This document shows positions 3,213-26,526 of a stretch of DNA of 26,801 nucleotides, in pieces; positions within the stretch are counted from its first letter, which is position 1; each line of letters opens with the position of its first letter. The notes below the pieces were generated by a model. That model did not search any database. It had not been told where the DNA came from and was given only the letters and a program-made list of their open reading frames with translations. Location: the IMG/VR virus record IMGVR_UViG_3300021559_000006; one strand, given 5' to 3'. The position numbers and the translations under genes are program-made. Origin of the DNA: an uncultured virus (IMG/VR IMGVR_UViG_3300021559_000006). Lineage: Duplodnaviria > Heunggongvirae > Uroviricota > Caudoviricetes.

Positions 3213-3551
3213 TCAGGCGGCGAGCAGCAGGTGGGCGCGGGCGGTCTTGAACGCGGCCTTGCGGGGCGCGTACTTCGCGGCGATCGCGGCGACCTCGGCC
3301 GGGGAGTACACGGCGCAGTCGCGCATCCGGCCAGCGGCGTGGACGCGGTGCTGCTGGCCGGTGATCTGGAGCTTGACGGCGGCTTTGCGGAGGGAGCCGG
3401 CAACGGAGCGGGCTTCGCGGACGGTGAGGCCGGCGCTGATGCAGTACGTCGAGAGGGATGCTTCGCCGTTGCGCTGGATGCGGGCCTGGGCGCGGGTCTG
3501 GGTGGCGCGGGCGGCGATGGTGCGGCGGGCCTGGCGGCTGCTGGCGTTCAT
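3213..3551 (-). CDS. Basic putative DNA-binding protein (112 aa, MNASSRQARR...LLLAA)
   Basis: TGATG overlap with the 44-aa ORF; C-terminal part of ORF 3213..4637; strong GC3 bias. Confidence 0.75.
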   Translation of the reverse strand: MNASSRQARRTIAARATQTRAQARIQRNGEASLSTYCISAGLTVREARSVAGSLRKAAVKLQITGQQHRVHAAGRMRDCAVYSPAEVAAIAAKYAPRKAAFKTARAHLLLAA

Positions 3552-3685
3552 CAGCGGCCTGCCTTGGCGATGGCGCGCTCGATGGCCTTGCGGGCGGTGC
3601 GGAGTCGGGCGGTTTCGGCTTTGGTGGCGGCGATTTCGGCGCGCAGCCGGGCCATCTTCTCGGCGTGGGCTTCGGCTGCGTTCAC
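3551..3685 (-). CDS. 44-aa basic helical micro-protein (MNAAEAHAEKMARLRAEIAATKAETARLRTARKAIERAIAKAGR)
   Basis: Manual translation; AAGGAG RBS before GTG; stop overlaps next start. Confidence 0.7.
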   Translation of the reverse strand: MNAAEAHAEKMARLRAEIAATKAETARLRTARKAIERAIAKAGR

Positions 3686-3734
3686 GGTCGGCTCCTTGGG
3701 CTAGTGAGCGAGACTCCGTCCGCCTCGTTCCCTG

Positions 3735-3842
3735 CCTTACAAACCTTACAGAACTTACGGGCATGATCGCAAGGTCTGTAAGGAAATCCAGCCCACCAAT
3801 CCGTACTTTCCTTACAGACCTCACCGCCCTTACACTCCAGGC
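3735..3842. promoter_or_regulatory. Divergent promoter/operator region with CTTAC repeats and a perfect 15-bp inverted repeat
   Basis: CTTAC at 3736, 3745, 3754 (9-bp period), 3811 and 3829; IR aggtctgtaaggaaa 3772-3786 / tttccttacagacct 3807-3821; leftward TTGCGA-N18-TAAGGT; rightward TACACT 3831-3836, 6 nt before ATG. Confidence 0.8.
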
Positions 3843-4319
3843 ATGACCAAAGCCCAGAAGCTCACCACCGAGGAAGCCCGCAAGCAGTTCGCCGAGCTGC
3901 TCAACGGCAGCCAATTCCGCAGTGAACACACCGAGATCACCCGCCACGGCAAAGCCGCCGGCTACCTCGTCCCACCCGAGTGGTACGAGGCGCAGCACGC
4001 TGGCCAAGAGGAACTCAAGACGCTCCGGGCCGAGGTCAAAGCCCTGCGCAGGCAGCTGACCGAAGCCCCGGCGGCGGAGGCCGATCAGCCCGCACCCGAG
4101 CCCCGGGAGCGACCGTCCCCGCCAACGGCCCGCGAGCCCGACCCCGTGGCCGCACTGACGGACCAGCAGGCCGCCGAGTTGGCCACACGCGCGTTCTCCG
4201 CCGCCGACCGCGAGCACTACAGCGCACTGGTCGCAGGGACCAAAGACGGCGACCGGGCAGTCGTGGCCATAGCGCTCGATCGTGGCGTGCTCACCGCGTC
4301 CGACCTGCGCGCGATCTGA
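3843..4319 (+). CDS. Phd/YefM-family (antitoxin-fold) DNA-binding protein with coiled-coil, Pro-rich linker and C-terminal extension
   Basis: N-terminus TTEEARKQFAELLNGSQFRSEHTEITRHGKAAGYLVPPEWYE fits the Phd/YefM pattern. Confidence 0.85.
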   Translation: MTKAQKLTTEEARKQFAELLNGSQFRSEHTEITRHGKAAGYLVPPEWYEAQHAGQEELKTLRAEVKALRRQLTEAPAAEADQPAPEPRERPSPPTAREPDPVAALTDQQAAELATRAFSAADREHYSALVAGTKDGDRAVVAIALDRGVLTASDLRAI

Positions 4320-4333
4320 TCCGCGCGCGCCAC

Positions 4334-4365
4334 CCCGCCCGGAACCGTTCCGGCCACCAGGCGGG
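4334..4365. terminator. Possible terminator hairpin between convergent genes
   Basis: ccggaa-ccg-ttccgg (4339-4353) nested in cccgcc/ggcggg. Confidence 0.35.
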
Positions 4366-4399
4366 ACACACGTACGCCCGCACAGCGAAACACGACCGT

Positions 4400-4885
4400 T
4401 CATGCTGCCCACCTGCCGATCTTGCGCACCAGCAGTCCGGCCTTCAACGCCCGCCGGACGCAGTCCGCGGTGCCGTCCGAGCGCGGCTGCGCAAAGGCAG
4501 CGATGACCACCACGGAGCCGAGGTGACGCGAGGCTTCGTTGACCATGCGCTGGTTCCGGAACGCCCCGGCAGCGGGGCACCACGAGGTGCCGTCCGCGCG
4601 TCTGCGGCGGTGTCCGGGCTGGCAGTGGACGCCGCACGGATCAGCCCACCGGGCTTCGTAGGGCAGTTCCAGGACGCCGGGCTGCCCGAGGGTCCAGCGC
4701 GCCGCCATCGAATCCGCACCCGAGGCCGCGCCGTGGATGACCGTCAGGCGCTCGTGGCCGGCTTGCTGGGCGCCGATCCAGGCGTCAGCGAGAGCTGCGT
4801 GCAGGACGGTGCGGTGCGTGGGGGTGCGCCAGAGCCGCGAGCCGGTGACGAGGATCCACGCGCAGCCGGGGTCGGGGTCGGTCAT
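4400..4885 (-). CDS. SLOG-superfamily protein (DUF2493/YspA-like)
   Basis: ILVTGSR, IHGAASGAD, AAGAFRNQRMV and SDGTADC motifs; GGAG RBS. Confidence 0.85.
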   Translation of the reverse strand: MTDPDPGCAWILVTGSRLWRTPTHRTVLHAALADAWIGAQQAGHERLTVIHGAASGADSMAARWTLGQPGVLELPYEARWADPCGVHCQPGHRRRRADGTSWCPAAGAFRNQRMVNEASRHLGSVVVIAAFAQPRSDGTADCVRRALKAGLLVRKIGRWAA

Positions 4886-4932
4886 GGGTTGCTCCAAGGT
4901 GGGCCCGGCCGCCGTGACGGCCGGGCGGGCGG

Positions 4933-5214
4933 TCAGGCTGCTGCGCGTTGTTCGGCGAGGCGTTCGGCTCGCTCGGGGTCCGGGCCGGGCTGGCCCCAGA
5001 TGTCGCCGAACTTGGCCTGCCTGGCGACGAGACCGACCTTGGCGGGCTCGTTGCAGGTCAGTCCCCTGCGGTGGATCTCGAACGACGTGAGCGAGCTGAA
5101 CGTGAGATGGCATCCGCCGCAGTGGCTGCGTTCGTTGCCGGTCCACCAGGCTCCGCAGCCGTGGATGATCGCGTTTTCGGGGATTCCATCGCGACCGGGG
5201 ATCGGGAGTGACAC
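4933..5214 (-). CDS. Phage zinc-binding protein (FDxHR-type)
   Basis: HGCG..WTG...SHCGGCHLTFSSLTSFEIHR...C. Confidence 0.75.
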   Translation of the reverse strand: MSLPIPGRDGIPENAIIHGCGAWWTGNERSHCGGCHLTFSSLTSFEIHRRGLTCNEPAKVGLVARQAKFGDIWGQPGPDPERAERLAEQRAAA

Positions 5215-5349
5215 AGGAAGGGCCTTTCTTGCGGGTTGGGTTTTACCTAGGAGCGATCGGGGGCGTTCCGGCGGGCATCGCCCGGCGTGCGGGGGAGAGC
5301 GGCTGGCTGCGCCTCGCTGCCGGAGGTCCGCGTATCGGCCCGGAAACGA

Positions 5350-5751
5350 TCACCGCGCCGCCCCCAGCAACCCGAGCTCGTAGCCCGCAGCCGTCGCCTG
5401 TACCCGCCCATCCACACCCAGCAACTGGAACAACCGCGCCAACCGGGCCTTGACCGCGTTCACCGTCCAACCCAGCTGCTCCGCGATCTGCGCGTTGTCC
5501 AGGCCGTACGCCACCAGCCGCAGCAGGTCGACGTCCTCGGGGCGCACCGACGGCCGGTCCATGGCCGGCGTCGCGGTCGGTGGCGGTCGGTGGTCGCTGC
5601 GCCCGTCGACGGCGGGGCGTTCGACTCCGGCGGCGCGGGCGGTGGCTTTCGCGAGGCCGTTGACCTGGCGGTCGTCGAGGGTGAGGCCGAGTCCTGGTGC
5701 GGCTTGGCGGATGGCGATGCGGGTGCGGCGTTCGGCGGCGGTGACGATCAC
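5350..5751 (-). CDS. Transcriptional regulator with C-terminal LuxR/GerE-type HTH
   Basis: LLRLVAYGLDNAQIAEQLGWTVNAVKARLARLFQLLGVDGRVQA...GYELGLL; GAGGAG RBS. Confidence 0.85.
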   Translation of the reverse strand: MIVTAAERRTRIAIRQAAPGLGLTLDDRQVNGLAKATARAAGVERPAVDGRSDHRPPPTATPAMDRPSVRPEDVDLLRLVAYGLDNAQIAEQLGWTVNAVKARLARLFQLLGVDGRVQATAAGYELGLLGAAR

Positions 5752-5803
5752 GGGCTTCTCCTCGGGTTGCGGCGGGCGGCGTGGTGCGGCATGAGACTCG
5801 GCG

Positions 5804-6028
5804 TCAGCAAGGCAGCGGCGGCGGTGACGGGCCATCAGGCGGCAGGTGGATCGGGATCACCTGCGCGTCGGGCCCGGCGGCGATGCGCCCTGGGTGCGGT
5901 TGGCTGCGGCGTCGGCCTCGGGTGGTGCATGGGTCACCGGGGCCGGCACGGCAATGCGGGCACGGCACCTGGAGGGCGGGCGGGCGTCCGCCGTACCCCG
6001 CTGCACGGCGGACGTCGTCGGCGGTCAT
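5804..6028 (-). CDS. Phage zinc-finger protein
   Basis: ALQVPCPHCRAGPGDPC...PHPGR; ATGA overlap with the replication gene. Confidence 0.75.
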   Translation of the reverse strand: MTADDVRRAAGYGGRPPALQVPCPHCRAGPGDPCTTRGRRRSQPHPGRIAAGPDAQVIPIHLPPDGPSPPPLPC

Positions 6029-7227
6029 GAGGCACCGGCCTGGTCTGCCGCGACGCGGCCTTCGAGTTCGGCCATCCGCTCGGCGAAGCTCGGCGGCTTA
6101 GGCGTGCTGGCCGTGCCGCTGCTGGCCTGTTCGTGTGGCCACAGGTGGACAGGCTCGTTGGGGACGCCGTGGAGGATGGAGGTCTGGCCGGTGTCGGTCG
6201 GGCGTTCGCGTTCGGCCCACTCCTGCCAGCGGGCACCCCAGCCGCTGGCGGGTGCTCGGCGGGCGTCGGCGTTCTGGCGGCGGGCGAACTTGCGGGTTAC
6301 CTCAGCGAGCTGCTGGCCGGTGAGGACGGGATTGCCTGCGGCGAGTCGGGCGTCTTGCGCGGCGTGGATGTCGTCCTGGGTGGGCTGCCAGTCGGGGGTG
6401 ATCAGAGAGAGAGGATTTTGGTCACCGACAGTGACGGGCGCCGGTTCGCCTCTCTCTCCCTTCCCTTCCCTTCCCTTCCCTTCCGGCAGTGAATGGGTGG
6501 GTGAATCGTTCACTGAGTCATTCAGTGAACGATTTTCACTCTGCGTAGACCAATTCGAGGCTTCCGGGTCATGGTCGTCACCGTCTGCGAAACCGTCGCC
6601 TGTGGACGAGTTCACTGAATCGTTCAGTGAATCCCGCCCGCCGCCCACGCTCCGTGGCGGAACGTAGTCATCATCCGGCCGGTCGCCGCGCCCCTTGTTG
6701 CACGCCTGATGCGTCGCCCGAAGGTTCGACGGATAGTCCGAACCGCCCTGACTCTGCGGCACGATGTGATCGATCGACAGGTTCCACACGTCGTTACTGA
6801 CTGGCTTCTCCGGGATCTGCTGCTTGCACAACTGGCACGTCCAGCCGTCACGCCGGGCGTACATCTCCCGCACCCGACGGTTCTGCAACGAGGGCGCCGG
6901 CATGCGGCCGGGCTGCGGCCGGTTGATGCGCTGGTGCTTGCGGAAGTTGACGACCGCGGCGAGCTGCTGGCGGGCGATGCCGCCGACGTAGGGGAACAGG
7001 AGCCCGGCGTCGGTGATCTCGCCCATGAACTTCGTGACGTCCGCGATGGTCAGGTCGTCGTCGTACATGAACACGGTGGCCTTGATGTACGACGCAGACC
7101 ACCGCAACAGGCCCTCGTCGTCCGCGAGGTTGAACGTGGCGATGAACAGGAGCCGGGCTTCGCGGGAGAGCAGGCCGACGACCTCGTCCTCCCAGAACTC
7201 CGGCTTCACAGTGCGGATGCGGGCCAT
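6025..7227 (-). CDS. Phage replication initiator-like protein with internal HNH domain
   Basis: MARIRTVKPEFW...LFIATFNLADDEG...NFRKHQRINRP N-terminus; RDGWTCQLC...SIDHIVPQSQGGSD..SNLRATHQACN; EGKGREGKG linker; PDWQP. Confidence 0.85.
   Translation of the reverse strand: MARIRTVKPEFWEDEVVGLLSREARLLFIATFNLADDEGLLRWSASYIKATVFMYDDDLTIADVTKFMGEITDAGLLFPYVGGIARQQLAAVVNFRKHQRINRPQPGRMPAPSLQNRRVREMYARRDGWTCQLCKQQIPEKPVSNDVWNLSIDHIVPQSQGGSDYPSNLRATHQACNKGRGDRPDDDYVPPRSVGGGRDSLNDSVNSSTGDGFADGDDHDPEASNWSTQSENRSLNDSVNDSPTHSLPEGKGREGKGERGEPAPVTVGDQNPLSLITPDWQPTQDDIHAAQDARLAAGNPVLTGQQLAEVTRKFARRQNADARRAPASGWGARWQEWAERERPTDTGQTSILHGVPNEPVHLWPHEQASSGTASTPKPPSFAERMAELEGRVAADQAGAS
6451..6631. repeat. Putative origin of replication: two TTCACTGA-N5-TCAGTGAA palindromes plus a (TTCCC)n tract
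   Basis: 13-bp IR 6504-6534; 9-bp IR 6611-6631; pyrimidine tract 6451-6484; located inside the initiator gene. Confidence 0.65.
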
Positions 7228-7231
7228 CGGT

Positions 7232-8053
7232 TCACACCTCGCCGTCGGAGAGGTGCGCCATCAGGTCGCAGTCAAGGTTCGAGCCCGCCCGGTGGGCGAC
7301 TTTCCGCATCTCCTCGATACTCAGGCCAGCTTTCATGAGCTGCCCCAGGGCGTCCTTGAACGCCTGCGGCGTCTCTGTCGGCTCGATCCCGTCCGTGCTG
7401 GCATCTCGCCATGCTTCGCACCAGACGTCAGCGACAGAGCCGAGCTCTCGCCAGCCTTCGAGGATCGCCTGCATGAGTTCGTGATCCTCCTGCTCGACGA
7501 TCTCGCGAGCCCTTTCCTGGATCTCGCGCACGCGCCGCCAGGCGACACCGCAGCAGTACCGGAAGTGATCCTGAACGCCGTGCGCCGTCATGGTCGCTTC
7601 GACGATGTCCGGCCACATGCGCGACGGCAGTCCTGAGGTACGGAGCGCCTCGACGCTCTGCTTCCAGTTGCTGGGCAGCGCCGCGACCTTGGCACCCGGC
7701 TGCCAGACGGACGCCCAGGGCTCCCATGCGCGTGTGAATTCCGACCAGTTCTCTTCCTTGACACGCTGCTGGTCGTCCTGCATGGCGGCAGCGGCCTCGA
7801 TGGCCCTGGCCCAGCGGACTTGGTCCTGTTCGACGCCGGCCACGATCGCCGCATCGGGCGGCGTAGAGCTCTTGCCGCCGTTGCAGTCGGCACACGCCGT
7901 GATGAGGTTGGTGGGTTCGTCGCCTCCCCCGAGCGCCACGGGGATGACGTGGTCGACGGTCAGCTTCACGCTCGGAGCCGAGCGCCCGCAGTAGCGGCAG
8001 GCGTGGTTGTCGCGCCTGAGGACTTCGAAGCGAAGGCGCTTGGAGACAGCCAT
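7232..8053 (-). CDS. HNH endonuclease-domain protein (N-terminal HNH, helical C-terminus)
   Basis: LRFEVLRRDNHACRYCG...VDHVIPVALGGGDEPTNLITACADCNGGKS. Confidence 0.92.
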   Translation of the reverse strand: MAVSKRLRFEVLRRDNHACRYCGRSAPSVKLTVDHVIPVALGGGDEPTNLITACADCNGGKSSTPPDAAIVAGVEQDQVRWARAIEAAAAMQDDQQRVKEENWSEFTRAWEPWASVWQPGAKVAALPSNWKQSVEALRTSGLPSRMWPDIVEATMTAHGVQDHFRYCCGVAWRRVREIQERAREIVEQEDHELMQAILEGWRELGSVADVWCEAWRDASTDGIEPTETPQAFKDALGQLMKAGLSIEEMRKVAHRAGSNLDCDLMAHLSDGEV

Positions 8054-8100
8054 GATGATCTTCTTTCGGCGGTGCAGGGAGTGGATAAGGGGCGGCCTAT

Positions 8101-8179
8101 GCAGTGCGTGGCCTGCACTGCCATACTACTTTAAAGATTGGCCAATAGTTAAAGGATCACAATGTCTTACACTCTTGCC
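8101..8179. promoter_or_regulatory. AT-rich divergent promoter/operator region
   Basis: 26-bp imperfect palindrome ctttaa-ag-attggccaat-ag-ttaaag 8129-8154; IR gcagtgc/gcactgc 8101-8121; TACACT 8168-8173, 6 nt before ATG 8180. Confidence 0.7.
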
Positions 8180-8392
8180 ATGGCCGAAGCCCCGGAGTTC
8201 CCCGTCGCCGACGACGGCGTGCAGGAGGTGCCGCTCACCCATGCGCGTGCCTACCTGACGCGACTCATCGAGCAGGCCCTCGAATCTGGGCTCGTCAGCG
8301 CGCTGACCGTCCGCAACCGCCGCCGCGTGTACGTCGTCTCGCCCGCCTTCTACGAGCAGGCCCTTGCCGACCGCGAGCGCGCCGACGCCTGA
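8180..8392 (+). CDS. Phd/YefM-like small protein (70 aa)
   Basis: QEVPLTHARAYLTRLIEQA.....SALTVRNRRRVYVVSPAFYE fits the Phd/YefM pattern; apparently leaderless start. Confidence 0.75.
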   Translation: MAEAPEFPVADDGVQEVPLTHARAYLTRLIEQALESGLVSALTVRNRRRVYVVSPAFYEQALADRERADA

Positions 8393-8400
8393 CCCGCGCC

Positions 8401-9225
8401 TCATTGCGCGACCTCCGGCACGTGGTCCTCGCCGCGGACCCGGAGCACACCCATGTGCAGCTCCTGCACGTAGGAGTTCCAGGCCGTGACGACCAGTCCG
8501 TACGACAGACCGTGCGAGTTGGTCAGGGCCCGGCGCTCCTTCGCGAAGCGGTTGCGCAGGTGCAGTCTTGAGTCGAGGCCGGTCAGGTTCTCGCCGTACG
8601 CGAGGCCGTCGAGCCACACCGGGATCCGGTCCGCGTACTGCGTGCGCGACGCCTGCGCGAGGACCGCGAGGTGCGGGGCTGCGAGGATCTGCGACTTGAC
8701 GCGGACGTGCTGCGCGGAGGCCGCGAAGGTGCCCAGCTCAGGCCAGGACGTCACCACGTGCAGCAGCTCGGCAACGCTGGTCCGCTTCGCGTACACCCCG
8801 CCGGAGGTGACAGGACTGTTCACCGTGCCGTCGATGGTGCCCAGGTAGCGGGCGGCGGACGTCATCAGCCTGGCGTGCGGATGGTGGACCATCTGGTTCG
8901 CCGTGCGCTTGTGGCCGGAGTCCAGGACGTCGAACGTGTCCGGGTCGCAGCCCACCCGGATGTCGAGCTGGACGGCGAAGCCGACGAGGACGATCGCGCC
9001 CAGGCGGTGCTGGCCGTCGAGGAGGAACCCGTCCCAGTCGAACGCGATGCCCTGATGCGTGGTCTTCCACCGGCCGGCACGCATCTCGATCGCCCACTGC
9101 TGGGCCTTGTGGTGGCTGTAGGTGCGCTGGCGTTCGACGTTGCGGTGCTCCAGCCAGGACTTGGCCATGGCCGGAGTGACGGTGACGATGCCGTTGGCGG
9201 TCGGCAGAGGGTAGAGGTCGCTCAC
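8401..9225 (-). CDS. ParB/Srx-like (DGQHR) phage protein
   Basis: VTPAMAKSWL...MRAGRWKTTHQGIAFDWDGFLLDGQHRLGAI...LDSGHKRT. Confidence 0.8.
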   Translation of the reverse strand: MSDLYPLPTANGIVTVTPAMAKSWLEHRNVERQRTYSHHKAQQWAIEMRAGRWKTTHQGIAFDWDGFLLDGQHRLGAIVLVGFAVQLDIRVGCDPDTFDVLDSGHKRTANQMVHHPHARLMTSAARYLGTIDGTVNSPVTSGGVYAKRTSVAELLHVVTSWPELGTFAASAQHVRVKSQILAAPHLAVLAQASRTQYADRIPVWLDGLAYGENLTGLDSRLHLRNRFAKERRALTNSHGLSYGLVVTAWNSYVQELHMGVLRVRGEDHVPEVAQ

Positions 9226-10252: not shown

Positions 10253-10428
10253 TGTGGTTCCTGTCGTCGTTTCGGTAGTCCGGGTCCTGGTGCTGGTTCG
10301 GGTTGTCCTGCGAGTGCTGCGGGGGTGTGGTCTGGGCAGCGGATGCCGGGTTTGAACAGCCGCCCGGGTTCGCCGCAGCGCCCTGTCGGCAGGCCCCAGT
10401 TGCAGCCCGGCAGGCGCGGCCCGGTCAC
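10249..10428 (-). CDS. Small Cys/His protein (59 aa, MTGPRLPGC...RCPDHTPAA)
   Basis: GTGA overlaps on both sides; GGAG RBS. Confidence 0.6.
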   Translation of the reverse strand: MTGPRLPGCNWGLPTGRCGEPGRLFKPGIRCPDHTPAALAGQPEPAPGPGLPKRRQEPQ

Positions 10429-10625
10429 AGGTCCGCGCCTATGTGTTTGCGGAGGTTGGCGCGGACGTTGGCCATGGACCGGTTGCCGCGTCCGGGTGTG
10501 GCGGGCATCGTGACGGTGGCCCCGGATGGTCCGGTGACCCGGTAGTGGCCGGATTTGGCGAGGCGCACCGTGTAGCCCTGTTCGCGTAGGCGGCGTATCA
10601 ACTGGCGGGTGTCCTTGCAGCCCAT
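10425..10625 (-). CDS. HicA-like (dsRBD-fold) protein, 66 aa
   Basis: RQLIRRLREQGYTVRLAKSGHYRVTGPSGATVTMPATP pattern; TGATG overlap. Confidence 0.7.
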   Translation of the reverse strand: MGCKDTRQLIRRLREQGYTVRLAKSGHYRVTGPSGATVTMPATPGRGNRSMANVRANLRKHIGADL

Positions 10626-11488
10626 CAGGCCGCCACCTTCCAGCCGGCTTGCTTCCACCGCAGGACCGTGCGGCCCGTGACATTGAGGCGCCGGCCGGTC
10701 TCTTCCAAGGACAGGCCCTGCACGGCGTGGAAGACCTGGGCGGCAGCGACGCGTTCAGCGCGGTTGAGTTCGGCTGTGCCGCCGTCGACGACCCTCTGTA
10801 CGGCGATCGGGTCGACGTCGGAGGGCTCCAGGTCGGCTTCGGGTACGTCGAGGTCGTCGGGATGCCACTGCTGCGGGGTGCGCCAGCCCTCACGCTGGCC
10901 GCGGAGCCGGTTGCGGCGACTGGGGCCCCGGGTGGCGGATAGTTCGTCGTAGACGGTGGCGATGCTCTCGTAGATGTGTGCGCGGATCCGCGTCACGTGC
11001 CCGTTGATGAGCCCACTGATCAGGGAGCCGTCCACGCTGGACCGTTCGGCCAGGACGTGGGCGATGTGCCCTTCTGCGAGGAGCGCGCGGAGGCGTCGGG
11101 TGGCGCCGTAGGCGGGCATGAGGGCGTGGGGTCCGGCGACGTCGATGGGCCGTAGGTTGAGGATGCGCTGGGCGGTGGTTCGGCGGATCGTGGTTTGGCG
11201 GTTGAACAGGAGGCCGCTGATGGTGCGGGATTGGATGCCGCGGGCGATGAGGGCGGGCCAGGTTGCTCCGTGGGCGAGGAGGTAGCGGAGGTGGTCGGCT
11301 GCGGGGGTGGCGTCGATGGTGAGGTTGCGGCCGGTGGTGTTGAGGAGGACGCGCCGGTTTTGGTAGTGGCGTCCTGCGGTGATGCATTCGGGGCAGCGGC
11401 AGCCGGGGATGCGGCTGTCGTGGCGGCCGACGTAGCGGGCGTAGGTGCCGTGTGGTGCGAGGGGTTTGGTGGACACGGCGGTGGTCAT
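10625..11488 (-). CDS. Multi-HTH DNA-binding protein with N-terminal HGT...CRC..C zinc motif
   Basis: PHGTYARY...GCRCPEC; internal HTH-like segments; C-terminal GLSLEETGRRLNVTGRTVLRWK; GAAAGGA RBS. Confidence 0.8.
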   Translation of the reverse strand: MTTAVSTKPLAPHGTYARYVGRHDSRIPGCRCPECITAGRHYQNRRVLLNTTGRNLTIDATPAADHLRYLLAHGATWPALIARGIQSRTISGLLFNRQTTIRRTTAQRILNLRPIDVAGPHALMPAYGATRRLRALLAEGHIAHVLAERSSVDGSLISGLINGHVTRIRAHIYESIATVYDELSATRGPSRRNRLRGQREGWRTPQQWHPDDLDVPEADLEPSDVDPIAVQRVVDGGTAELNRAERVAAAQVFHAVQGLSLEETGRRLNVTGRTVLRWKQAGWKVAA

Positions 11489-18448: not shown

Positions 18449-19632
18449 GCCGCACCCCGCAGCGTCTCCGTCATGGCCTTCAGGTTGGCGACGGTCCCCG
18501 CGTCGACAGGCGTCCCATACGCGCGCTGGAAGCCCTCCTCCAAGGCGGCGTCCGTCAACTTCGCCCGGGCGGCGGCGGCACGTAGCGCCTTGACGGCGTC
18601 GGCCTGCTCGTCGCGAACGGCCTGCAGTGGCGGCGCGGGGGTCTCCCACGGCCCGGGGTCCGCCCGCTGGGAACGCACGACGCCGCGAGTCGGCTCCGGC
18701 GGTGCAGCGGCCGCCGCCGAAGCCGACCCTTGAGCAGCCGCGGCACGAAGGCCCTTGCCGCGGCTGAGAAGGTACGCTCCGACGGCCGTCGCCTCACCGG
18801 TGTCCGGGTGGAGCAGCGCCGACCCGAGCAGGCCGCGCGCCTCGATCTCCCGATACAGGGACTGCGCGCTCTCCAGGGTCAGATCCGCCGCGACGGCACG
18901 GTCAATGTAGGTGGCGGCATCCACCACGGGCGTCCCGCCGGACAGCCACTCCAGGATCGTCGTGGCCAACTGCTCGCCCGGGTGACGGATCACGGCACCG
19001 GCGAGATCGGAGCACCGGCTCTTGCTGATGATCAGGGAGTTCTCGGCGTCCATGTCGCCGACGATGTCGAACTCGTACTCGATACCGTCGCGCTGCTCCG
19101 GCTTCATGCCGATCTTCCGGGGCGTTTTGCGGCCCCGCTCGTTCTCCTCGATGACGTACTCGGTCTTGCTGCGCATCGTCACGATGACGTGCCCCGGGTA
19201 GGCGAGGAGCGCCTCGACGAGCTGGCGCTCCATCGGGCGGGCGTCCTTCCACCCCGCGAACGAGTTCCCGCCGTAGCGCTTCGCGGCATTGTCGGCCTGC
19301 TCCAGCATGCCGCCGACGCCGGACCAGAAGTGCGACAGCGAATCGACGATGACCACGGGGTACCTGGCCTGCCCTGCGGCGGCCAGGGAGGCAACCAGGT
19401 TCTGGGGGGCGAAGTTGGTGAGGTTCAGGGCGTCGAAGACGAAGCCCTTGCCGTCGGCGCCGACGGCATACTTCGAGGCCGAGCCGTGCTCGGTATCGAT
19501 CACGGCCATGCGATCCCCGAGGACCTTGCCCAGGGACAGGGCGGTGAAGGTCTTGCCGGATCCGGACGGCCCCGCGAGGGCGATGCGGGCCTTGGACTGC
19601 TCTCGTGTGGCTGGTGCGAAGGTGAAGTTCAT
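18445..19632 (-). CDS. AAA-domain (AAA_24) ATPase, Sak4-like recombination protein
   Basis: Walker A GPSGSGKT; IDTEHGSA; Walker B VIVDSLSHFW; HVIVTMRSK; EYEFD. Confidence 0.88.
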   Translation of the reverse strand: MNFTFAPATREQSKARIALAGPSGSGKTFTALSLGKVLGDRMAVIDTEHGSASKYAVGADGKGFVFDALNLTNFAPQNLVASLAAAGQARYPVVIVDSLSHFWSGVGGMLEQADNAAKRYGGNSFAGWKDARPMERQLVEALLAYPGHVIVTMRSKTEYVIEENERGRKTPRKIGMKPEQRDGIEYEFDIVGDMDAENSLIISKSRCSDLAGAVIRHPGEQLATTILEWLSGGTPVVDAATYIDRAVAADLTLESAQSLYREIEARGLLGSALLHPDTGEATAVGAYLLSRGKGLRAAAAQGSASAAAAAPPEPTRGVVRSQRADPGPWETPAPPLQAVRDEQADAVKALRAAAARAKLTDAALEEGFQRAYGTPVDAGTVANLKAMTETLRGAA

Positions 19633-20984: not shown

Positions 20985-21146
20985 TCAGGCGGCTTCGCTG
21001 GCCTGCCCGTGCTGCTCGGGTTCGGCGAAGACGCGCTGCAGGAGCGCGAGTTGCGCGGCGGTGGGCGGTGGGGCTTCGGCTCCGATGCGTTCCGCTTCGG
21101 CGAGGGATTCCGGGCCGAGGATCGCCAGGCGCTCGTCACGGGTCAT
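20985..21146 (-). CDS. 53-aa protein, candidate recombination directionality factor (phiRv1 Xis-like)
   Basis: GGAGG RBS; ATGA overlap with the Cro-like gene; AEAPPPTAAQLALLQRVF motif. Confidence 0.65.
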   Translation of the reverse strand: MTRDERLAILGPESLAEAERIGAEAPPPTAAQLALLQRVFAEPEQHGQASEAA

Positions 21147-21430
21147 GCGCTGATCGCCTCCACTCGGGGGCGGTCGGCGATCGCGCCGGTTAGGGGGGCG
21201 AAGAGGATGAGCACGCCGACGCCGATGCGGTCGGCGATGGCTTGCGCGATCTCGGCGTTGACGTTCGGACGGAACCCGGAGAGCAGGTGGCCGATGGTGC
21301 TGTGGGAGCATCCGGCGGCCTCGGCGAGGCTGCGGGTGCTGACCTTCGATCCGTCGTAGGTGCGGTCCATCAGGGTCCGCAGGAGTTCGCGGTTGACGAG
21401 CCGGTAGGCGGGAGGGGCAGGGGCGCTCAT
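21143..21430 (-). CDS. XRE-family HTH protein, Cro-like first lytic gene
   Basis: STRSLAEAAGCSHSTIGHLLSG...AQAIADRIGV; GGAGGT RBS. Confidence 0.9.
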   Translation of the reverse strand: MSAPAPPAYRLVNRELLRTLMDRTYDGSKVSTRSLAEAAGCSHSTIGHLLSGFRPNVNAEIAQAIADRIGVGVLILFAPLTGAIADRPRVEAISA

Positions 21431-21485
21431 GTTCACCTCCAAGATCAGAGTGTTGTTTTCCGTGAACAAGAACAGCATCGCATGA

Positions 21486-21657
21486 CCGTAGACGCCCTGT
21501 CTACGGAAATGAACAATCGGCGCATCGAGATCGGGCCATTGACCCCGCGCGCCCTAGCGCGGAACGTCTATCGCAGTGGACACTTTGTTCAGTTTTCTGA
21601 ACATGTCAGGCGTCTGAGCAGGCGGCGAAGCGGTAGGGACTGCTGAGACGGGTAGAC
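21486..21657. promoter_or_regulatory. Immunity operator region, consensus GTAGAC-N5-GTCTAC
   Basis: Perfect ccgtagac-gccct-gtctacgg 21486-21506; degenerate gtggac-acttt-gttcag 21576-21592; half-site gtagac 21652-21657. Confidence 0.65.
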
Positions 21658-21699
21658 ATTGCCTTTGCATACATGCACAGGAGCGGCAGGATGTGCCTC

Positions 21700-22125
21700 A
21701 TGGTGGAGCAAGTAGTACGCGCAGACCTCAGCGATCTCGTGCGCAACCGGCGCGAGGAGTTGCGACTCAGCCTGCGCGAACTCGCCGTCGCCTGCGTCGA
21801 CCCGGACACCGGGCTGCAGCCCTTCAAGTTCGGGTGGATCAGCAAACTCGAGCAGAACAAGCCCGACCTCGACGTACCGAAACAGCCGCAGCTACGCGCG
21901 CTGGCCGTCGGCCTGCGTCTACCCGTAGACGTGATCAAGGAAGCGGCCGGGGCGCAGTTCATGGGCATCGAGCCGCCCGGGATCTGGTCGGAGAGTCGCG
22001 AGGCCCGCATCATGGTCGCCCGAATGGATGAACTCACCCCCGAGGCGCGCAAAGCCCTGGCCGACATGGTCGAAGCGTTCGCCCGAGGCAACCCGACCCC
22101 CACTACCGAATCTGACCACCAGTAG
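21700..22125 (+). CDS. XRE-family immunity repressor (start could be 21673 or 21691)
   Basis: LSDLVRNRREELRLSLRELA...WISKLEQ...QLRALAVGLRLP...EAAGAQF; divergent from the Cro-like gene. Confidence 0.88.
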   Translation: MVEQVVRADLSDLVRNRREELRLSLRELAVACVDPDTGLQPFKFGWISKLEQNKPDLDVPKQPQLRALAVGLRLPVDVIKEAAGAQFMGIEPPGIWSESREARIMVARMDELTPEARKALADMVEAFARGNPTPTTESDHQ

Positions 22126-22536: not shown

Positions 22537-23982
22537 TCACAGCACATCAGGAACCTGCGGCCCAAACCGCAGATCCACCCGGCCAGGCTCGATCCGCCGC
22601 ACTCCGCGCCGACCCGGACTGACCGTCACCGCCACACACGCCCTAAGCACCATGCGCCGCCGCTCCAGCACCAGCGCATTCCACCGCGCATCCGCATCCG
22701 GAGCACCCAGCAGCCCGCGCAACACCGGCGGAACCATCGCCCGCTGGACGCGATCCTGAAGCCTCTCGATCTGCGGCAGAATCCCCGACTCCACCGCCGC
22801 CAAAGACACCGCCGACAACTTCCGCGACGCCGCCAACAGTCGGGCCTCCTGCAACTCCGCGTTCAACTCGTCGACCTCCGCCAGGATCGCCGACACCGAA
22901 CTCCCCGGATCCGCAGGCTTGAACGCCTCCACCGCCGCCGGACTCGACAACCACGACACCAACGCCGACTCCACATAGGCGTCCAGGCGCGTCTCCAGGA
23001 TCGCCACGTGCGCCCGCGGCCGGCACACATACGTGGACCGGCCCCTGTTCTTCAGGATGTACAGATCGGCCCGGCCGCACACCCCGCACACCGCGATGCC
23101 GGACAGGAGATGCGACAGGGGACGCCCGGCGCCGTCGTTGCGGCCCGGCGTGGAGAGCATGGCCTGGACCGCCCAGAACGTGGCAGGGTCGATCAGCTCA
23201 GGCCAGTCGGCATTACGGATCACCTTGCCCTGGTGGATCCGCTTGCCGATGTTCGTCTGACTCCGGAACACCTTCAGCAGGGCGTCGCCGTCCCAGTCCT
23301 TGCCCGTGCGCGTCGTGTGGCCGCGCTCGTTCAGCCATGCGGCGATCGGAGGCGCGGACTCGCCCGCGGCATACCGCTTGTAGGCCGTCTCCAGGTCGGG
23401 GCCCTCGGTGGGGTGGAGCCTCTGGGCGACGAGTTCGCCGGTGTGCGGGTCGTACTCGCGCATGTAGCCGAACGGGATCCGGCCGTGGGGGCGGCCCTTG
23501 GCGGCGTTGAGTCTCACGGTGCGCAAGTTCCGTTCGCGGATCTGTTCGGCCTCGTCTTCGGCCTGGGCTGCGTCGCGGGTGGCTTCGCGCCGGTCGCGGC
23601 GGTCGTTCATGTCGAAGGTGTGGCCGCCGTAGCGCCACAGGACGCCGGACTCCTCGATGAGCTTGCGGAGTTCGACGTAGCCGTCCATCGTGCGGTTGGC
23701 GCGGGAGGATTCCCACGTGACCAGGACGTCGCACTCGCCGGCGCGGATGCGGACGGCCATGGCCTCGAACTGGTCGCGGGTGCGTCTGGCGTGGCGGGAT
23801 GCGGAGCGGTTGTCGTCGGTGAACTCGCCGACGACGGTCCAGCCTTGGTCTTCGCATTCGGCGTGGTTCTCCGCTGACTGGTCCTTGGTGGAGCGTCCGC
23901 GGCGTTTGGGGTCGCGGGAGGCGCGGTTGTAGATGAAGGCGCGCAGGGGCTGTTCCGGTGGCTGGGTGGGCATGGATGTCAT
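22537..23982 (-). CDS. int: Large serine recombinase (phage integrase)
   Basis: FIYNRASRD catalytic Ser motif; DDNRSAS; WESSRANR; PFGY recombinase domain; LLSGIAVCGVCG...YVC zinc ribbon; coiled coil. Confidence 0.95.
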   Translation of the reverse strand: MTSMPTQPPEQPLRAFIYNRASRDPKRRGRSTKDQSAENHAECEDQGWTVVGEFTDDNRSASRHARRTRDQFEAMAVRIRAGECDVLVTWESSRANRTMDGYVELRKLIEESGVLWRYGGHTFDMNDRRDRREATRDAAQAEDEAEQIRERNLRTVRLNAAKGRPHGRIPFGYMREYDPHTGELVAQRLHPTEGPDLETAYKRYAAGESAPPIAAWLNERGHTTRTGKDWDGDALLKVFRSQTNIGKRIHQGKVIRNADWPELIDPATFWAVQAMLSTPGRNDGAGRPLSHLLSGIAVCGVCGRADLYILKNRGRSTYVCRPRAHVAILETRLDAYVESALVSWLSSPAAVEAFKPADPGSSVSAILAEVDELNAELQEARLLAASRKLSAVSLAAVESGILPQIERLQDRVQRAMVPPVLRGLLGAPDADARWNALVLERRRMVLRACVAVTVSPGRRGVRRIEPGRVDLRFGPQVPDVL

Positions 23983-24113
23983 GGCGTCAGGCTAGCGTTA
24001 TTACTATGTCTACGCCGCGCGGTCGGGCGCGAAGGTCCATCAGGGATGTGAGTATAACTATGCAACGCGGGCGTAGTCCTTGCGATCGTGCAGGCTGCGG
24101 GCGCCAAATAGCA

Positions 24114-24341: not shown

Positions 24342-24728
24342 ATGGTGCAGCCCAGGGAACCCGACAAGCCTGTCGTGGTCTATCACCGCCACCACCTCCA
24401 GCGTTGCTGTGTGCCCAAAGATCCAATCGACCCAAGCGCGCGGAGGGACATCCAGCGCATCGGTCGGAACGTCGCCAGTCTCCGCGCCTGGCGCAAGATC
24501 GGGCAAGAGGACCTCTCCCATGTATCCGGGGTCAGCGTCCGCCACATCCAGCGCATCGAAGCCGGCGACGGCGACCCGGCGGCGTCGTTCTACATCCGTC
24601 TCGCGCGGGCGTTGAACGTGCCCCTGTTCTGGGTCTTCACGGACGACTGGCCGCGGTTCGCCGAGGAGCAGGTGGGGGGTGGCGAAGCGTCTGTCAATCC
24701 GTCGCATGGCCACCCTGATGGGCGCTAG
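24342..24728 (+). CDS. XRE-family HTH regulator (start at ATG 24342 with GAGGAGGT RBS, or leaderless GTG 24411)
   Basis: IGRNVASLRAWRKIGQEDLSHVSGVSVRHIQRIEAG...IRLARALNVPL. Confidence 0.88.
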   Translation: MVQPREPDKPVVVYHRHHLQRCCVPKDPIDPSARRDIQRIGRNVASLRAWRKIGQEDLSHVSGVSVRHIQRIEAGDGDPAASFYIRLARALNVPLFWVFTDDWPRFAEEQVGGGEASVNPSHGHPDGR

Positions 24729-26414: not shown

Positions 26415-26430
26415 CTAGTTTCCTAGGTAA
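26415..26430. promoter_or_regulatory. Putative GntR operator 2 (autoregulatory)
   Basis: ctagtttcctaggtaa matches 25593-25608 at 13 of 16 positions; lies just upstream of the GntR start. Confidence 0.6.
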
Positions 26431-26526
26431 CCTCCTCGAATGCTCGCATCGGCCGGGCGCAGGGTCAAGCAGGAAGGCCGCCGACGTGGTCAGTTCCGCC
26501 CATCCGGCGCTGGGACAATGGATCAC

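Follow-up and report, generated by a model that had tools for sequence, protein, structure and literature searches.

Two solitary Phd/YefM-fold genes antisense in the early operon of an actinobacterial prophage: candidate regulators of divergent control regions

Results

Two plus-strand genes within a leftward early operon

The window analysed here is the whole 26,801-nucleotide (nt) stretch of IMG/VR record IMGVR_UViG_3300021559_000006, an uncultured virus of the Caudoviricetes, and our subject is a pair of small genes in it, gene 1 and gene 2, which lie antisense within a phage early operon and whose products share the N-terminal fold of the antitoxins Phd and YefM (coordinates in Table 1). 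The window has a G+C content of 69% and is contained in its entirety in DNA runs from soil metagenomes. A serine integrase gene, a cI/cro-like gene pair and a leftward early operon identify it as a prophage, evidently of a soil-metagenome actinobacterium. The initial annotation of this DNA had singled out gene 1 and gene 2 as the only credible plus-strand genes of the first 21 kb, and both the list of open reading frames (ORFs) and a screen for G+C at third codon positions (GC3) bear this out. GC3 is 0.84 in gene 1 and 0.86-0.89 in gene 2, like that of the minus-strand genes. The only other plus-strand ORF flagged by the screen in 1-21000, at 18986-19201, was rejected as an antisense shadow with a G+C of 0.39 at first codon positions (GC1); the plus-strand genes 21673-22125 and 24342-24728 lie beyond 21 kb and hence outside the range of the earlier claim.

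Two separate families

A protein search with gene 2 retrieved 72 relatives, mostly of 70-129 amino acids (aa), which have 14 invariant residues in common. We fetched 17 of their loci from species genomes and 10 from viral contigs; removal of three duplicates (L022, L025 and L029) and of one fusion form (L017) left 24 distinct gene-2 loci including the window. The corresponding search with gene 1 retrieved nine relatives, none of them from species-representative genomes, and the loci fetched come from two viral and four metagenome contigs. As three of the metagenome contigs do not differ in their upstream regions, these amount to five independent gene-1 loci including the window. The fetched gene-1 relatives are 50-69% identical to gene 1 at the protein level. 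Searching 50,697 cultured-phage records with both proteins by tblastn (E 1e-3) yielded nothing, and blastn of positions 3400-8500 against cultured phages gave short matches only, which covered 3-5% of the query and fell chiefly in phage HNH-endonuclease genes.

Aligned as family profiles, gene 1 and gene 2 match each other with an hhalign probability of 85.6% (E 5.6e-6), which identifies them as apparent remote paralogues belonging to two separate families. The two do not travel together: neither of the two gene-1-type viral records contains a gene-2 relative, the single match being the gene-1 relative itself, and none of the 10 gene-2-type viral records contains a second separate Phd-like gene, one of them having an adjacent GIY-YIG-Phd fusion gene. 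The pairing of the two genes thus seems to be a property of this mosaic prophage and not a conserved one, and the idea of a repeated module, put forward in the initial annotation, has to be given up.

The Phd/YefM fold of the two proteins

Gene 1 matches the family PF02604 with 35 bits (E 1.2e-8), above the cut-off of 29.8, whereas gene 2 stays below it (18 bits, E 2.5e-3). Still, 30 of 32 aligned gene-2 relatives match PF02604 at E<=0.01, and the AlphaFold model of gene 2 (mean confidence score, pLDDT, 72.5) has the order strand-helix-strand-strand-helix. When this model was compared with known structures by Foldseek, Phd and YefM chains ranked top, with 3hs2_A as the best match (E 2.5e-3, prob 1.00, TM-score (TMt) 0.70). 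The first-ranked PDB match is Phd truncated to its DNA-binding domain, Phd on operator DNA (4zm0, 4zm2) occupies ranks three to five, and 2a6q is also among the best. Gene 2 corresponds to the Phd/YefM DNA-binding domain alone, with a conserved N-terminal ADDGVQEV stretch and an RNRRR hairpin. In gene 1 the Phd/YefM domain (residues 8-72), which includes most of a long helix (45-73), is followed by a low-confidence linker (75-105) and a folded helical C-terminal domain (107-157). Other resources added little: PHROGs assigns a family to neither gene, the sole NCBIfam match is phd_fam for gene 1, below the cut-off, and ESM Atlas gave no usable feature match and structure rows under threshold. 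The Phd/YefM N-terminal pattern noticed earlier in both proteins was thus confirmed, for gene 1 by Pfam and for gene 2 by its model and its relatives; profile and model checks together favour the fold, with gene 2 alone under the Pfam cut-off and the whole gene-1 model unmatched (see Discussion).

Termini without a conserved toxin-binding tail

In Phd and YefM the C-terminal tail is the toxin-binding part. Gene 2 stops 6 residues past the fold, and the tails of its relatives vary in length and sequence; by this comparison it is devoid of a conserved toxin-neutralising C-terminal segment. In the gene-1 family, one relative of only 58 aa consists of the Phd domain alone and scores 36 bits for PF02604, and further relatives bear a different C-terminus. 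The C-terminal domain of gene 1 (4125-4316, plus strand) itself recurs behind helix-turn-helix (HTH)-like N-termini in small proteins (P0084, P0085, P0091 and P0092). From the variable C-termini and this recurrence gene 1 would appear to be composed of a DNA-binding head and an exchangeable tail. As for the nature of the tail, phmmer with residues 95-158 matched ankyrin-repeat proteins (E 1e-7 to 1e-4) via 3-7 repeated stretches, and no Pfam Ank family matched gene 1 at E<=0.1; the domain looks like a capped single ankyrin-like repeat, which we note as a lead only.

The Phd-like domain is found in other company as well. Fusion proteins of about 150-254 aa, in which a GIY-YIG nuclease domain precedes a Phd/YefM-like domain, are encoded at L024 4247-4693, L011 2245-2709 and L017 3767-4231, protein P0009 being a further example; in two of these loci, L024 and L011, a co-oriented gene of the gene-2 family immediately precedes the fusion gene. 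This layout resembles that of a homing endonuclease with, in this case, a Phd-fold DNA-binding domain. The gene-1 tail behind HTH-like heads and the Phd domain behind GIY-YIG are what would be expected of an exchangeable DNA-binding module.

Absence of a toxin partner

The initial annotation was also right in that each gene runs head-on into a phage gene and no toxin follows. Gene 1 ends at 4319 and the convergent minus-strand gene starts 80 nt on, gene 2 ends at 8392 and its convergent neighbour ends 8 nt beyond, and these distances leave no room for a toxin gene. PADLOC reported nothing for either gene. The stretch between gene 1 and its convergent neighbour folds no better than shuffled sequences (z 0.21).

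The same arrangement prevails among the relatives. In the 24 gene-2 loci the upstream neighbour lies on the opposite strand in 21 cases and the downstream neighbour in 20. Fourteen convergent downstream neighbours were scanned, and none belongs to a toxin family (they are WhiB, C5 methylase, Bro-N, RuvC, HTH_58, MarR or unknown proteins); where downstream ORFs are co-oriented, none (0/20) has a Pfam match. The divergent neighbours are HNH (window, L008, L019), GIY-YIG (L001), endonuclease VII (L020) or HTH_36 proteins, which typically head a replication/nuclease block. When nine neighbours from the window were compared by tblastn with all fetched loci, no conserved partner emerged for either family: matches were confined to the HNH protein (L008/L025) and scattered weak ones, and no relatives of the HicA-like protein described below, of the SLOG protein or of the 44-aa and 113-aa proteins were found. 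The divergent layout that the initial annotation proposed to look for is largely kept in the gene-2 loci, with varying neighbours and no single partner.

Simple local loss of a toxin was considered and rejected, since the families are toxin-less in the relatives too. An adjacent toxin and a neutralising tail are two defining features of a type II antitoxin; to judge from the genes themselves both are missing here, and for this reason we do not class gene 1 and gene 2 as antitoxins.

A conserved leaderless-type promoter design

Both genes are preceded by an identical CTTACACTC, as noted earlier, at 3829-3837 and 8166-8174. The window has no further exact copy, and in each of the two TACACT lies exactly 6 nt before the ATG, at 3843 and 8180. 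No start lies upstream in gene 1, where AGG alone, 3 nt before the ATG, recalls a ribosome-binding site. The pattern TANNNT-N6-ATG is present in all 24 gene-2 loci (TACACT in 20, TAGACT in two, TACAAT and TACAGT in one each) and in all five gene-1 loci (TACACT in three, TACGCT and TACGAT in one each). In the two TAGACT loci the hexamer contains an in-frame stop and there is no ATG upstream of it, so that the protein must begin at the second ATG there. Moreover, in every one of the 24 gene-2 loci both "codons" overlapping the hexamer have T as their last base, in genes with a GC3 of about 0.85, and the third base of the next "Leu codon" varies freely, which argues for a constraint on the DNA, as for a -10 element. 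The design agrees with what is reported for Streptomyces coelicolor, where TANNNT is found at 80% of transcription starts and 21% of mRNAs are leaderless, with a preference for AUG and many regulators among the encoded proteins (PMC4895711).

The window holds five TANNNT-N6-ATG sites, compared with 0.89 expected, all at the first ATG of a credible gene. The other three precede the cro-like gene (21476-21490, minus strand), the integrase gene (23980-23994, minus strand) and a host ORF (26428-26442, plus strand). Leaderless heads of transcription units hence appear to be this organism's normal style and no special mark of gene 1 and gene 2; what would be special to these is the longer shared CTTACACTC. 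This 9-mer belongs to the gene-2 family as such, irrespective of the presence of a gene-1 relative, and occurs in three of the five gene-1 loci. We considered whether it might serve as a site of cross-regulation between the two genes.

Spacer repeats and candidate operators

Both genes share a spacer with a leftward gene, and the low G+C content and repeats ascribed to these spacers were borne out for both. At 3686-3842 and 8054-8179 the G+C content dips to about 0.51-0.56, compared with 0.69 for the window. All six copies of CTTACA in the window lie in the two spacers (1.5 expected; 0 of 100 shuffles reached six). Spacer 1 has two arrays of 9-bp-phased units with an inverted copy between them, and the last unit of the right array contains the -10 hexamer of gene 1. 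The gene-1 family is marked by CCTTAC(A/G)G repeats whose distances from the start are kept: in the five gene-1 loci C(T/G)TAC units recur at -14 (5/5) and -32 (4/5), an inverted CTGTAAGG recurs at -50 to -68 (4/5), the fifth locus having a palindromic CTTAAG at -45, and direct copies of the unit are also found farther upstream. One of the gene-1-type viral records, G001, from which L018 was taken, has a second CCTTACAG-N8-CTGTAAGG pair (1859-1882; L036 859-882) together with a third GTAAGG. They lie in a spacer of 68 nt, far from the Phd-like gene of that phage, and the pair is 7 nt away from the start of a leftward, unrelated gene for a 183-aa protein of no Pfam family. Such a pattern would be expected of a regulator that acts on more than a single target.

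Spacer 2 is built differently. Its imperfect palindrome has as left arm the box of the gene-2 family: a CTTTAAAGATTGG-type box lies upstream in the family, with TTTAAA in 19 of the 24 loci. To the left of the box is a separate inverted repeat, in whose place gene-2 relatives have other inverted repeats such as GGCAG...CTGCC, which suggests a conserved hairpin or a second operator at 8101-8121.

For leftward transcription, TANNNT candidates on the minus strand are TAAGGT (3748-3743) and TAAGTT (3757-3752) in the left array of spacer 1 and TAGTAT (8128-8123) in spacer 2. About half of the spacers of gene-2 relatives retain such a leftward TANNNT, so that we did not count it as evidence. A scan for terminators gave no consensus match in either region.

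Prophage setting

The cI/cro-like pair spans 21143-22125, and GntR-type host genes follow farther right. From the cro-like gene the early operon runs leftward through genes for an AAA_24 ATPase, Bro-N, an HU-like protein, an N6/N4 methylase, RusA, a HicA-like protein, an endonuclease-I-like protein, two HNH proteins (one of replication-initiator type), a LuxR-type HTH protein, a zinc-binding protein, SLOG and small unknown proteins. Of the small genes that lead away from spacer 1, the first has AAGGAG 6 nt before its GTG and is thus leadered; the second has a third-codon-position G+C of 0.82-0.97, and no family match was found for its 113-aa product. Within the HNH/replication-initiator gene (6025-7227, minus strand) the G+C content dips to 0.53-0.58 at 6400-6640, and iteron-like repeats GTTCACTGA.TC.TTCAGTGAA at 6508 and 6610 are accompanied by nested inverted repeats; this region is possibly the replication origin of the phage. 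The HicA-like toxin-fold gene (10425-10658, minus strand; PADLOC E 2.7e-9, phrog_2089, no Pfam match) is a solo gene as well: it probably starts at its second Met, where it overlaps the stop codon of the HTH gene upstream, and no HicB-like gene was recognised beside it.

Table 1. Positions of the genes and sequence elements in the window
Feature	Position	Strand	Remarks
Gene 1	3843-4319	+	158 aa
Gene 2	8180-8392	+	70 aa; 76 aa from ATG 8162
TACACT, -10-like, proposed leaderless promoter of gene 1	3831-3836	+	6 nt before ATG 3843
TACACT, -10-like hexamer of gene 2	8168-8173	+	6 nt before ATG 8180
Left array, three 9-bp-phased units CCTTACAAA CCTTACAGA ACTTACGGG	3735-3761	+	starts 3735, 3744, 3753
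Inverted unit copy AGGTCTGTAAGGAAA, between the arrays	3772-3786		15 nt, 100% complementary to 3807-3821
Right array, four 9-bp-phased units CCGTACTTT CCTTACAGA CCTCACCGC CCTTACACT	3801-3836	+	starts 3801, 3810, 3819, 3828
Imperfect palindrome CTTTAAAGATTGG / CCAATAGTTAAAG	8129-8154		centre ~38 nt before ATG 8180; left arm is the conserved box of the gene-2 family
Inverted repeat GCAGTGC-N7-GCACTGC, 7 bp	8101-8121		left of the box
Second leftward gene from spacer 1	3213-3552	-	113 aa; ATGA overlap with the 44-aa gene
First leftward gene from spacer 1	3551-3685	-	44 aa, predicted helical
Convergent neighbour of gene 1	4400-4885	-	SLOG/YspA-like; PF10686 E 5e-5, phrog_289 E 1.3e-19
Divergent neighbour of gene 2	7232-8053	-	HNH endonuclease; heads the HNH/replication-initiator block (6025-7227)
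Convergent neighbour of gene 2	8401-9225	-	274 aa; phage family phrog_5931, E 1.7e-38, function unassigned
Cro-like HTH gene	21143-21478	-	
CI-like HTH gene	21673-22125	+	
Serine integrase gene	22537-23982	-	

Discussion

Taken together, our results make it somewhat probable that gene 1 and gene 2 encode leaderless, toxin-independent, autoregulated DNA-binding regulators of divergent control regions. Direct support comes from the fold, from the finding that toxin gene and conserved toxin-binding tail are both missing, and from the conserved promoter and repeat designs; from these we infer where transcription starts (at the ATGs), that the proteins bind DNA, that leftward promoters exist, in which direction they are regulated and how read-through would switch the genes off. 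Each gene would be transcribed from its own TACACT into a leaderless mRNA, counter to the direction of the early operon, and its product would bind the family-specific repeats in its own upstream spacer. The targets of gene 1 would be the eight CCTTACNNN-type units, that is, the two 9-bp-phased arrays plus the one inverted copy, and the target of gene 2 would be the CTTTAAAGATTGG box/palindrome and perhaps the -10 region too. Binding is predicted to repress the gene's own promoter and to determine how active a leftward promoter of that spacer is; this second promoter would restart the next early block, namely the HNH/replication-initiator block next to gene 2 and the small genes next to gene 1. 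Since the two genes are antisense to the early operon, lytic read-through could in turn silence them by transcriptional interference, a step that is further removed from the data. The conserved TANNNT-N6-ATG together with the family-specific spacer repeats fits stand-alone DNA-binding switches at divergent control regions. Of the initial proposal of stand-alone switches on internal promoters, the domain, the toxin-less families and the conserved starts and repeats have stood up, and the control of promoters itself is presumed from them; a sensing of host proteases, also suggested there, finds no support in the data.

Several observations weigh against this interpretation. Confidence is low over the Phd part of the gene-1 model (pLDDT 50-66) and high only in the C-terminal domain (pLDDT 90-96). 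A search of the PDB with the whole model brought up no Phd structure: Foldseek returned nothing below E 4 and VIA-align nothing above Z 4.8, the matches being generic helices. The confident C-terminal domain might be a docking site for another protein, in keeping with an antitoxin-like role, and a toxin-fold gene, the HicA-like one, lies about 2 kb from gene 2. On the promoter side, a consensus scan of both strands of the two spacers was negative for sigma-70-type promoters, and the leftward -10 candidates are bare TANNNT matches. A soil metatranscriptome contained 83% of the sampled words, with contigs over 3557-4183 and 6049-8600 among other stretches; these contigs carry no strand, ends or level and may stem from DNA carry-over, and they were not used as evidence. 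Finally, gene 2 has a second in-frame ATG at 8162, 18 nt upstream of ATG 8180, with AAAGGA 5 nt before it. The earlier statement that no ribosome-binding site is present therefore applies, in gene 2, to the start at 8180 only. An ATG at this distance is kept in 21 of the 24 loci behind a purine-rich, Shine-Dalgarno-like GGAAGGA or AAAGGA, and a leadered form of gene 2 that is 6 residues longer is possible. The conserved ATG also yields a CATG...CATG pair bracketing the -10 hexamer, and it may serve as an additional start, belong to a binding site, or do both.

How do other explanations account for the same features? Gene 1 and gene 2 might be decoy antitoxins that neutralise host Doc/YoeB/RelE-type toxins released by toxin-antitoxin defence, as the initial annotation had offered as an option. 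Both proteins have the antitoxin fold and the extra folded domain of gene 1 could bind a protein, yet gene 2, ending so shortly past the fold, is without a conserved C-terminal tail, the part generally known to bind the toxin, and its relatives' tails are not conserved either. In addition, a decoy would have no need of the upstream repeats, which are conserved along with the genes, and the orientation contrary to the early lytic operon also speaks against it. That phages carry orphan antitoxin-like counter-defence genes, for example against DarTG1, is reported (PMC11825919), and we nevertheless consider a decoy role quite improbable. A similarly low likelihood attaches to the idea that they are true antitoxins of an unconventional partner, be it the divergent HNH protein, the convergent SLOG protein, the products of the small leftward genes or the HicA-like protein. 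Nucleases are divergent in several loci (HNH, GIY-YIG, endonuclease VII), a HicA-like gene is present in the window, and gene 1 has a possible partner-binding domain; however, no neighbour is conserved with either family, and in other loci the divergent neighbour is a non-nuclease HTH_36 protein.

Less improbable, and still unlikely in our view, are prophage-expressed immunity or exclusion factors, which would bind the same operators on incoming related phages to stop them from replicating or from using their early genes, with regulation of the resident prophage as a secondary role. The orientation opposite to the lytic operon with own promoters, the position beside replication/nuclease genes, which is kept in relatives (HNH, GIY-YIG, endonuclease VII and HTH_36 being divergent), and the conservation of operator repeats among related phages would all suit such factors. 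Then again, the DNA-binding step is common to exclusion and to the regulator model, so that these data do not separate the two, and a similar reverse-oriented Phd-like gene is found in Streptomyces phage SF3, which the title of PMC5336643 describes as virulent. That gene 1 and gene 2 are chance ORFs or decayed, functionless remnants might be argued from the shortness of gene 2 and its score under the Pfam cut-off, but 72 gene-2 relatives with 14 invariant residues, nine gene-1 relatives, a GC3 of 0.84-0.89 and conserved promoter and operator sequences make this highly improbable.

The regulator model has a wider form, which we put forward as a rather doubtful but conceivable extension: in actinobacterial phages the Phd/YefM fold may be a general sequence-specific DNA-binding module outside toxin-antitoxin systems, used in switches and fusions alike. 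The solo antisense genes would then be checkpoint switches, a repressor made in the lysogen shutting the internal restart promoters, and the replication and small-gene blocks would be held shut until lytic read-through interferes. The ankyrin-like domain of gene 1 could let the switch sense a protein signal, and in the GIY-YIG fusions the Phd fold would direct a homing-endonuclease-like protein to its target.

Proteins with a Phd/YefM fold tend to be labelled "antitoxin" almost automatically. The two conserved families described here, of phages and prophages, have the fold and no toxin, and they comprise 72 and nine relatives by protein search and 23 and four further distinct loci. If they are regulators, many "orphan antitoxins" of actinobacterial prophages would be mis-named transcription factors, the early operons of temperate actinophages would have internal checkpoints besides the cI/cro switch, and the small proteins with their 9-bp repeat arrays would provide compact, testable repressor-operator pairs for Streptomyces genetics. 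The GIY-YIG-Phd fusions, for their part, suggest that the fold can also be used to target DNA. Antitoxin-like genes without a partner are nothing rare, and that antitoxins repress their own promoters is textbook knowledge; in the open-access literature we found no prior description of conserved toxin-less Phd-fold phage families with operators, of GIY-YIG-Phd fusions or of a study of the SF3 protein gp67 discussed next.

The closest known systems by fold are Phd of the phage P1 Phd-Doc pair, itself phage-borne, and YefM of YefM-YoeB, whose N-terminal fold gene 1 and gene 2 share. Phd and YefM repress their own promoters through repeats, and the conserved repeats described here overlap or adjoin the -10 region of gene 1 and gene 2. 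Unlike Phd and YefM, however, the two genes have no co-oriented toxin gene in the window or in most relatives and stand solo and antisense in a phage operon, gene 2 being without a conserved toxin-binding tail and gene 1 having a different folded C-terminal domain.

An example from a cultured phage is gp67 of Streptomyces phage SF3 (NC_028952.1, 44375-44590; L035 1376-1720 corresponds to 44375-44719), a reverse-oriented solo Phd-like protein of 71 aa. Like gene 2 it matches PF02604 (21 bits), it aligns with the gene-2 family with an hhalign probability of 90.8%, and it is the sole minus-strand gene among four plus-strand neighbours in the stretch examined. It has TAAAGT 7 nt before its ATG and two TGTACA palindromes upstream, its repeats thus differing from those of the window, and it is too distant from gene 1 and gene 2 for tblastn at E 1e-3. 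Its annotation is that of a hypothetical protein, and a table of PMC5336643 has a weak pfam02604 entry for it. The resemblance suggests that the toxin-less Phd theme extends beyond the two families.

Two further comparisons concern function. The DarTG1 counter-defence orphan is likewise an antitoxin-type phage protein without a toxin, described in PMC11825919 as an antitoxin-like enzyme that neutralises the DarTG1 system; in contrast, the conserved part of gene 1 and gene 2 is a DNA-binding domain accompanied by conserved putative operators. The two genes also resemble the cI/cro-type switch of temperate phages, in which a gene for a small DNA-binding protein likewise faces a leftward block across a repeat-bearing spacer. 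From that switch they differ in having a Phd/YefM fold rather than an HTH, in their 9-bp-phased direct arrays, and in lying well inside the early operon, at distances of about 13 and 17.5 kb from the prophage's main cI/cro-like switch.

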